DNA of 10,064 bases, taken from positions 19,547-29,610 of the forward strand of contig NZ_JBNHEP010000288.1 in NCBI RefSeq assembly GCF_050015995.1, written 5' to 3'. This DNA comes from Dapis sp. BLCC M229 (lineage in GTDB: Bacteria; Cyanobacteriota; Cyanobacteriia; Cyanobacteriales; Microcoleaceae). A model generated the notes under the pieces. The model was given only the letters and a program-made list of their open reading frames with translations. It had not been told where the DNA came from and ran no database searches. The position numbers and the translations under genes were made by a program. Each line of letters starts with the position of its first letter. The first letter of the stretch is position 1. This document shows positions 321 through 1,951 of the stretch, in pieces.

Positions 321-800
321 TAGTCTACCTTTGTGAAAACCGCTATAAGTGCATAAATAAACCTCTCTTAAAATCCAAAATAAAATTAATTATTATTCAT
401 AAATTATCAATCTATTACCTCTTTTATAGAAATGTCTAATAGTTTCCAAATGAGTTCTATAGATACTCAAGATACTCAACAAAATAGTTGTCTGTTTTTT
501 TGATGAGATAGAATATAATTTATACCCTTCCTGGCTAAATAAAAGTATGATTTTACAGCAGTTAGGAGTCAGGACTCTCAGATTTATACTAAGTTACAAA
601 ACAATTAAACTATCAGTAATAAAGAAAGTACCAAAGAATATCCACTTAAAACAGAGAATAATGGTATAATTAGTCTGAAGCCACAACAGTATATTCATGT
701 TCTTGACAATAATACTGGTGTTACCAGACTAGAAATAGGTCCGCAAACTATTACTCTAGGAGATGCGGAAAGGTTAGTCTTACAACCAAGACCGACCATT

Positions 801-1280
801 GTGGTTCCACCTAGCTATTACTGTATAGTGGCTAATCCTGTATTAAGAGATAGTAATGGTCAACTGGTGGTAGATGAGTATGGTCAAATTAGACTTAGAT
901 ATGGCGATCGCGAAATTCGCTTTGCTCAAGACCCTTTCCCTTTATATCCAGGAGAAATACTCGAAGAAGATGTAACTCAACTACAGATAGTTGAGACAAA
1001 CCAAGCACTACGTCTCAAAGCAATACGAGATTTTACTGATACAGTCACCGTTGCAGGAGAGTCTCAAACCGTCATTCGTGCTACAGGGGATGAATGGTTA
1101 TTTGAGGGGCCGGGAACTTACACCCCAAGGGTAGAAGTTGAAGTCATAGATATAGTTACCGCTAAAATAATTAAACCTAACCAAGCCTTACGACTCCTGG
1201 CAAGACAAAATTGTATAGACCGTCAAGGTAACAGACGTAGAGCGGGGGAAAAATGGTTGGTCAGGGAAGAAGGTGACTAA
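801..1280 (+). pseudogene. MVP relic, N-terminal fragment (vault repeat domains R1-R2); ORF-track ORF with a GTG pseudo-start
   Basis: Contains HYC(I/T)VANPV, DPFPLYPGE and DEWLFEGPGTY, which are signature motifs of MVP repeat domains. The reading frame actually continues upstream to 609 into MVP N-terminal sequence. One HIP1 site lies inside (904-911). Confidence 0.8.
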
Positions 1281-1369
1281 TATTGATATTCAGTCCGTGG
1301 AGCCAGTTGATGAGGAGACGTTGAAGAGTTTACAGAAGTCGGTACAACTAGCAATTCAAATTACTACTG

Positions 1370-1951
1370 ATGCTCAGGAAGCTGCTGCCTGCCCGTCGAG
1401 ATGCTGAAAGAATTGAACAGGAGGCTAAGGCGAGGTTGGACAGGCAGATAATTGTAGACAGGGGTGCTTCGGAAGTAGAGCGGAAACAATTATTGGAGTT
1501 AGAGGCGGAAAATGATGCTATTGAGGCGACGGGTATAGCTAGTGCTGAGGCTAGGGCGAAGGCAGAAGCGGCTCAGATTCAAGGCCAGTTAGCGGTGAAT
1601 TTGGCACAGCAGGAAGTAGAAGCAGCACGCATTTGCCATGAGGCGGAAATGGCTCAGTTGAGGGCGCGTCACGAGACTGAGTTAGCCCATCAGCAGACAC
1701 TGAATAATTTAGAGATTGAGAAGGCAAGGCAAATGGCTGAAATTACTGCCACTGAGTTTCAGCAAAAAGTGGAGGCTTTGGGGGCTGAGACAATTCAGGC
1801 GATCGCTCAAGCTGGCCCAGAAATGCAGGCCAGGTTGTTAGAGGGGCTTGGTCTTCAGAGTGTTTTGATTACTGATGGTAAGAGTCCGATTAATCTTTTT
1901 AGTACGGCTAATGGGTTGATTAATCCGAATAATGCCACAAATAAATTCTGA
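1370..1951 (+). pseudogene. MVP relic, C-terminal fragment (cap-helix coiled coil plus cap-ring). The ATG at 1370 is a fortuitous internal start created by the frameshift.
   Basis: The Ala/Glu/Gln-rich heptad region followed by GPEMQ...LITDG.SPINLF matches the MVP C-terminus. Upstream MVP-homologous sequence (QSVEPVD...[10 protein letters not shown]) is in a different frame (frame 1, 1273-1389). One HIP1 site lies inside (1799-1806). Confidence 0.8.

Follow-up and report, generated by a model that had tools for sequence, protein, structure and literature searches.

Evidence for recent inactivation of a major vault protein gene in Dapis sp. BLCC M229 at a locus intact in several close relatives

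Introduction

Why should a cyanobacterial genome carry the two ends of a major vault protein (MVP) side by side, in different reading frames and without the middle? The question is raised by positions 612–1951 of a 10,064-bp stretch of Dapis sp. BLCC M229 (RefSeq assembly GCF_050015995.1, contig NZ_JBNHEP010000288.1, forward-strand positions 19,547–29,610), which was analyzed as a whole and is here called the window. A preliminary description, made from the sequence without database searches, had read the two open reading frames (ORFs) at 801–1280 and 1370–1951 as fragments of one dead gene. The intact syntenic orthologs described below agree with it, and we regard it as very probable that 612–1951 is a recent unitary pseudogene of a cyanobacterial MVP, at a locus that close relatives retain intact.

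MVP homologs have already been described in Oscillatoriales cyanobacteria (Daly et al. 2013, PMC3762200; Sokolskyi 2019, bioRxiv 10.1101/872010) and are also mentioned in 10.1101/2023.11.10.566534. Neither of the first two papers describes vault particles assembled from a bacterial MVP, even an intact one. In the rat protein, the repeats occupy residues 1–519 and the shoulder residues 520–646 (PMC3595041).

MVP homology in three successive frames

A tblastn search with an 888-residue composite cyanobacterial MVP, joined from two overlapping database matches, recovered three collinear segments on the plus strand of the window. Residues 2–227 of the composite correspond to positions 603–1274 in frame 0 (72% identity, E = 4e-101), residues 658–696 to 1273–1389 in frame 1 (90% identity), and residues 696–874 to 1391–1927 in frame 2 (78% identity, E = 4e-91). 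Chance cannot account for such a three-frame match, which describes one dead gene rather than two genes. Frame 0 is open from 609, directly after a TAA at 606–608, to a TAA at 1278–1280; the frame 1 segment runs from 1273 to a TGA at 1405–1407, and the frame 2 segment continues to the stop at 1949–1951. This is the frameshift-aware comparison that the preliminary description had named as able to refute it, and it shows three frames and no continuous single-frame match.

The domain content of the pieces is that of an MVP lacking its center. Translation of 609–1277 matched the Pfam families Vault (PF01505, E = 1.5e-31, in two stretches) and Vault_2 (PF17794, E = 4.6e-27); the two C-terminal pieces matched no Pfam family, and the shoulder domain PF11978 was found by Pfam in no fragment of the window. 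Orthologs carry PF17795, PF17796 and PF11978, the last of which was also found in orthologous fragments. When compared with solved structures, the rejoined relic protein aligned to residues 5–202 and 635–850 of rat MVP (E = 4e-144), with positions 1273–1927 accounting for residues 635–850 (199.8 bits) in a match split over two frames; the relic also matched 1Y7X, a human two-repeat fragment. It thus retains the N-terminal Vault repeats, the cap-helix and the cap-ring, but neither the full set of nine repeats with an SPFH-like shoulder nor a single ORF of ~850–930 residues with a start codon.

The database search for homologs yielded eukaryotic MVPs as well as many cyanobacterial ones, which often bear the name 'colicin uptake protein'. 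Relative to the cyanobacterial proteins of Moorena producens (F4Y3B4), Oscillatoria acuminata (K9TKX8) and Microcoleus sp. PCC 7113 (K9WB38), the parts kept in the relic are 72–90% identical at the protein level and share the N-terminal extension, Vault repeats, cap-helix and cap-ring; unlike them, the relic lacks a start codon, codons ~222–640 and a continuous frame. In comparison with eukaryotic MVP (rat and human; PDB 4V60, 4HL8, 7PKZ), rat residues 203–634 have no counterpart in the relic, the host is bacterial, and no PARP4, TEP1 or vault RNA is evident in the window.

Intact orthologs at the same locus

Nine syntenic relatives were assembled from an exact-protein look-up, a scan of GTDB representative genomes and a scan of metagenome contigs. 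They include Okeania sp. SIO3I5 (L056), Okeania hirsuta (L057), Okeania sp. SIO2F4 (L061), the JGI metagenome contig L001 (3300019849) and metagenome contigs L066–L069, and show ~90–95% DNA identity to the window over the relic and the shared downstream genes, which encode a Tmemb_14 protein, a DUF815 ATPase, TerB, a thioesterase and an AMP-ligase. The genome scan used a three-sequence alignment, as an alignment that included fragments had no usable conserved stretch; an exact-sequence look-up of the C-terminal fragment of Okeania SIO2F4 returned no contig. Judged by these relatives, the window probably comes from an Okeania-like marine filamentous cyanobacterium.

In five of these relatives the gene occupies the corresponding locus, followed by the same downstream genes, as an uninterrupted ATG-start ORF of 865–926 residues (L056, 926; L066, 866; L067, 865; L068, 865; L069, 924), and the segments retained in the window are 91–94% identical in DNA to these intact orthologs. 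It is against these five syntenic ORFs that the lesions of the window are recognized as disabling. Most of the 62 other loci recovered by the genome scan, which are mostly cyanobacterial with a few from Thiomargarita or Beggiatoa-like bacteria, Anaerolineae and one Actinomycetota genome, also carry a full-length, single-frame MVP ORF, which argues that the intact gene is the normal state. None of the window's lesions recurs in any relative (eight of them cover the start codon, and six were compared across the deletion junction and the TGCC site described below). With lesions private to the window and several relatives intact, the earlier impression of a gene loss caught in progress is borne out.

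The start codon and the N-terminal segment

The N-terminal segment (612–1274, frame 0) covers the N-terminal extension, repeats R1–R3 and most of R4. All eight relatives that cover its start (L056, L001, L057, L061 and L066–L069) have ATG there in an otherwise conserved context and read ...CTATGAGTAA..., whereas the window reads ...CTATCAGTAA...; to judge from this comparison, the MVP start is lost through one substitution, G614C, that turned the ATG at 612–614 into ATC. Homology therefore begins at the ancestral start codon itself and not, as had been proposed, near residue 5. The companion statement that frame 0 lacks a start codon is correct in that no ATG, GTG or TTG precedes a GTG at 801, but it overlooked that the ancestral start is still in place as ATC. 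Also still encoded is the N-terminal extension, about 17 residues long in cyanobacterial MVPs relative to rat MVP (ISNKESTKEYPLKTENNG in the window, MSKKESTTEYPIQIENNG in L066).

An ATG at 661–663 in frame 1 was considered as a frameshifted start. It reads ATG GTA TAA, ending after two codons as previously noted, and was ruled out: the start of the relatives falls at 612–614, and blastn aligned positions 604–1275 to both L056 and L001 over 672 bp without a gap, so that no indel lies between 612 and 1275 and the ATG is not a displaced start.

An out-of-frame deletion at a GGTG microhomology

In the six relatives that could be compared, the deleted interval has GAAGG(T/A)G|CTTATT at its left edge and TTGGTGGTG|ACTAAT at its right edge. 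With GAAGGTG|ACTAAT, the window joins MVP sequence directly to MVP sequence at a 4-bp GGTG microhomology (1272–1275). Measured against L066, L067 and L068, 1259 bp are missing; against L056 and L069, which carry an extra segment of ~57 residues, the figure is 1442 bp. The former is the better estimate, because both the 5′ and the 3′ flanks of L066 and L067 are identical to those of the window. Either size leaves a remainder of two on division by three, in keeping with the initial estimate of about 1.3 kb out of frame. In L056, the extra segment (~10980–11160) contains a partial duplication, with GTKEVRQGRTSFF... present twice.

The missing interval comprises codons ~222–640 of the 865-residue allele plus 2 nt (419 codons), equivalent to residues ~228–657 of the composite MVP and 203–634 in rat numbering. 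The frame 0 match ends at REEG (1274), shortly before the TAA at 1278–1280, and thus extends beyond the ~1262 first given; the frame 1 match does begin at 1273, as stated. In the per-repeat boundaries attributed to Tanaka et al. (2009), R4 reportedly spans residues ~165–218. If that boundary holds, the relic would keep R1–R3 and most of R4 and would have lost the end of R4, R5–R9 and all but ~12 residues of the shoulder. A breakpoint within R4 is also consistent with the Pfam assignment of Vault_2 plus two Vault units and with the match to 1Y7X. The preliminary description, which had R3–R9 removed, was therefore off by nearly two repeats, but was right that most of the shoulder is gone, as rat residues up to 634 are absent. 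No JGI metagenome contig exactly matched a 28-mer that spans the junction, and the deletion is not known from any other sample.

Two small insertions in the C-terminal half

Downstream of the junction, the middle segment (1273–1389, frame 1; rat MVP from residue 635) encodes the last shoulder residues and the beginning of the cap-helix. It is separated from the C-terminal segment (1394–1927, frame 2; cap-helix and cap-ring, aligned as far as rat residue 850) by a 4-bp tandem duplication at 1386–1393, where the window reads GCTGCTGCCTGCCCGT and six relatives, lacking the insertion, read GCTGCTGC(C/T)C(G/A)T. In codons, GCT GCT GCC TGCC CGT in the window stands against GCT GCT GC(C/T) C(G/A)T in the relatives, which encodes AAAR or AAAH; TGCC at 1386–1389 is repeated at 1390–1393, with a register that is ambiguous by a few bases. 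A single extra T at 1390, as previously proposed, was ruled out, since orthologs read AAARRD, with three alanines, and not AAAARRD; the +1 effect on the frame is as originally described.

A further lesion had been missed, so that the several independent lesions number four and not three. At ~1929 the window reads CCGAATAATGCC, compared with CCG-GTAATGCC in L066, and the two are otherwise identical well past the stop codon. This 1-bp insertion (at ~1929–1930) changes the C-terminal tail (1928–1951) from VMPQINSDS* in L066 to NNATNKF*, rewriting the last nine residues; its functional weight is judged small, because the tail varies among the relatives.

Proposed course of inactivation and its timing

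Four disabling changes, given here by position, are specific to this lineage. A G-to-C substitution converted the ATG start to ATC, and a deletion of ~1259 bp between two GGTG tetranucleotides, presumably by microhomology-mediated illegitimate recombination or replication slippage, removed codons ~222–640 and shifted the frame. A tandem duplication of TGCC inside the GCT-GCT-GCC run, plausibly through slipped-strand mispairing, shifted it again, and the 1-bp insertion rewrote the last nine codons. The product would have neither an initiation codon nor a shoulder, and over half of the barrel wall would be missing; the remnant would yield no vault-forming protein and is predicted to have no functional product.

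Patterns of substitution suggest that the inactivation is recent. Pairwise dN/dS (the ratio of nonsynonymous to synonymous divergence) between the relic and its relatives is 0.15–0.27 at dS ~0.25–0.30, and most of the divergence therefore arose under constraint. Polarized with six relatives, the substitutions unique to the window comprise 4 synonymous and 13 nonsynonymous changes (omega ~0.97, on small counts), compared with 44 and 37 in the five intact relatives pooled (omega ~0.25; Fisher p = 0.03). Among the window-unique replacements at conserved positions are R68S (PPRHYC>PPSYYC), E214K (GEEWLV>GEKWLV) and R340C. The window-specific changes thus look neutral and fit a recent relaxation of selection, but the signal is weak: counts are small, the ratio in the intact L056 is also high, and an earlier count with only three or four taxa showed no nonsynonymous excess, which emerged after four more relatives were added. 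With 16 nonsynonymous to 6 synonymous changes, the L056 gene may itself be under relaxed constraint.

Several observations count against the pseudogene interpretation. The relaxed-selection signal consists of 17 substitutions, and the intact L056 gives the comparable figures just cited. ATC can, in rare cases, initiate translation in bacteria, and peptides could be expressed from the fragments, all of which are still open frames. The lesions are known from two assemblies, and the second of these, described below, may derive from the same reads as the first. Finally, the view taken here is that of a 10-kb window, and an intact second MVP copy may lie elsewhere in the genome.

Decay of the locus across the Okeania clade

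The ten alleles sampled at this locus divide into five intact and five broken copies, the latter with at least three, and probably four, unrelated sets of lesions. Three decayed alleles represent the same gene at the same locus as the window but bear entirely different lesions. In both L001 and L061, codon 9 is a TAA and a TnpB-only IS200/IS605-type element stands in place of the central part of MVP; L061 carries in addition a frameshift at residue 137. The gene of Okeania hirsuta (L057) is broken by a TGA codon, by ~100 bp of inserted sequence and by an in-frame deletion of 948 bp. On this basis, we lean slightly toward the view that MVP was inactivated repeatedly and independently within one clade of marine filamentous cyanobacteria, Okeania and its relatives.

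Gene trees of individual segments conflict with one another, placing L061 with the window and L001 with the intact L056 although L001 and L061 share lesions. This disagreement suggests recombination among lineages; for the TnpB element itself, its presence in both halves of the tree implies either recombination or parallel insertion. The element lies at 8650–10000 in L001 and 1943–2556 in L061 and encodes a 399-residue OrfB_IS605/Cas12f1-like TnpB.

Broken MVP loci were also seen outside the Okeania clade (L048, L049, L054, L063): Hormoscilla has a frameshift, Moorena bouillonii a replaced middle and Floridaenema a large deletion, and an uncultured cyanobacterium retains a heavily deleted relic of ~750 bp.

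Alternative explanations

The TnpB element prompts the most serious alternative, in which the gene was first killed by a TnpB-only IS200/IS605-type insertion sequence (IS) and a later deletion of ~1.87 kb took out both the IS and the MVP sequence flanking it. In L001 and L061, the element replaces MVP residues ~349–596, an interval fully contained in the deletion of the window (residues ~228–657), and the tree of the N-terminal segment groups the window with the IS-bearing L061. Yet no IS remnant occurs at the junction (1272–1275), the window contains no TnpB-like ORF, and it has neither the codon-9 TAA of L001 and L061 nor the frameshift of L061 at residue 137. A direct deletion from an intact allele would also require one event rather than two. 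In view of the missing remnant, and because the alleles whose flanks are identical to those of the window (L066 and L067) are intact and IS-free, we consider an IS intermediate unlikely and retain the direct deletion.

Could the lesions instead be errors of sequencing or assembly, the gene being intact in the organism? The sequence apparently comes from a metagenome or draft assembly, and the preliminary description had itself raised the issue for the indels. The lesions, however, are four in number and of four kinds (a substitution, a 1.26-kb deletion, a 4-bp duplication and a 1-bp insertion) within 1.3 kb, and the deletion is flanked by just 4 bp of homology, which speaks against a collapsed repeat. 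A Logan contig produced by a different assembler (SRR33627862_432) is 100% identical to window positions 321–2297 without gaps, including all four sites, so that a second assembly reproduces the indels; the only 100% matches to the window were Logan contigs from this run, SRR33627862. Nor would an assembler create a nonsynonymous excess specific to the window. Taken together, these points make an artifact highly improbable.

It is equally hard to credit that the fragments are short functional genes by design, with the GTG at 801 starting a 159-residue R2–R4 protein and the ATG at 1370 a 193-residue coiled-coil protein of the cap-helix, or that programmed frameshifting rejoins them. In favor, neither ORF is interrupted, gene calls on the Logan assembly include both, and a passage of PMC3595041, citing van Zon 2002, has the cap-helix of eukaryotic MVP oligomerizing on its own. 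Against this, the break points are conserved in none of the nine close relatives, which argues against selection for the split arrangement. The internal starts are fortuitous, the window-specific changes look neutral, and the missing 419 codons are more than a frameshift could span.

Composition and wider distribution of MVP

The relic stands out in base composition, with a GC content of 0.44 compared with 0.32 both in the remainder of the window and in the five neighboring genes. At third codon positions, its GC content (GC3) is 0.35 (0.44 in the C-terminal half) compared with ~0.20 for those genes. The intact ortholog in L056 (9995–12775) forms the same kind of compositional island. Such an island, rich in GC and GC3, suggests that the Okeania clade acquired the gene laterally and that it has not yet ameliorated.

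Outside the Cyanobacteriota, full-length MVP ORFs with 67–82% identity to the cyanobacterial protein were found in Thiomargarita, Thiotrichaceae, Parabeggiatoa, Anaerolineae, Chloroflexaceae and one metagenome-assembled genome of Actinomycetota (L036, L041, L043, L053, L038, L039, L042, L058). From these sequence matches, the patchy spread of MVP among large filamentous or gliding bacteria appears consistent with horizontal transfer.

Other features of the window

A gene encoding a KGK-domain protein on the minus strand (7343–7816; 169 residues in L001) aligns over its full length in a single frame at 48% identity and contains an internal stop after ...SKQIAS, making it a probable second pseudogene. 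Two genes found in L001 between the KGK-domain gene and the AMP-ligase gene, one for ApbA and one for a methyltransferase, are absent from the window. Directly upstream of the minus-strand AMP-ligase gene (MenE-like), which starts at 9381, at least 4.5 tandem copies of a ~133-bp unit form an array (9449–10064) that runs off the end of the window, and positions 9385–9439 repeat 9222–9276, inside the 5′ end of the same gene, at 84% identity.

Upstream of the relic, AT-rich non-coding DNA holds a direct repeat of 58 nt (1–58 and 266–323; 98% identical, 265 bp apart). Downstream of it, a short dispersed repeat at 2473–2686 matches four places in L001, and inverted-repeat pairs resembling miniature inverted-repeat transposable elements occur at 3351–3610 (34-nt arms, 192 nt apart) and 2235–2383 (25-nt arms, 99 nt apart). 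Rfam and tRNA scans of the window found nothing, and a promoter and terminator scan of 300–2400 gave no more sites than shuffled sequence.

Biological implications

Taken by itself, the loss in Dapis sp. BLCC M229 is an ordinary and cleanly resolved case of recent gene loss in a known family. For annotation, it means that ORFs 801–1280 and 1370–1951 should not be recorded as genes. The relic also combines three mutational mechanisms on one gene, with point mutation, microhomology-mediated deletion and slipped-strand duplication each represented.

Bacterial MVPs have scarcely been studied, and a limited check of the literature found no mention of MVP pseudogenes. The most useful point of this locus is that the decay of MVP appears to be independent in several lineages of the Okeania clade. 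Since intact and differently broken alleles coexist at one locus, MVP would be dispensable in this clade. If the repeated decay is true, these genomes would provide natural knock-outs beside near-isogenic intact strains, in which to ask what the vault proteins of bacteria do.

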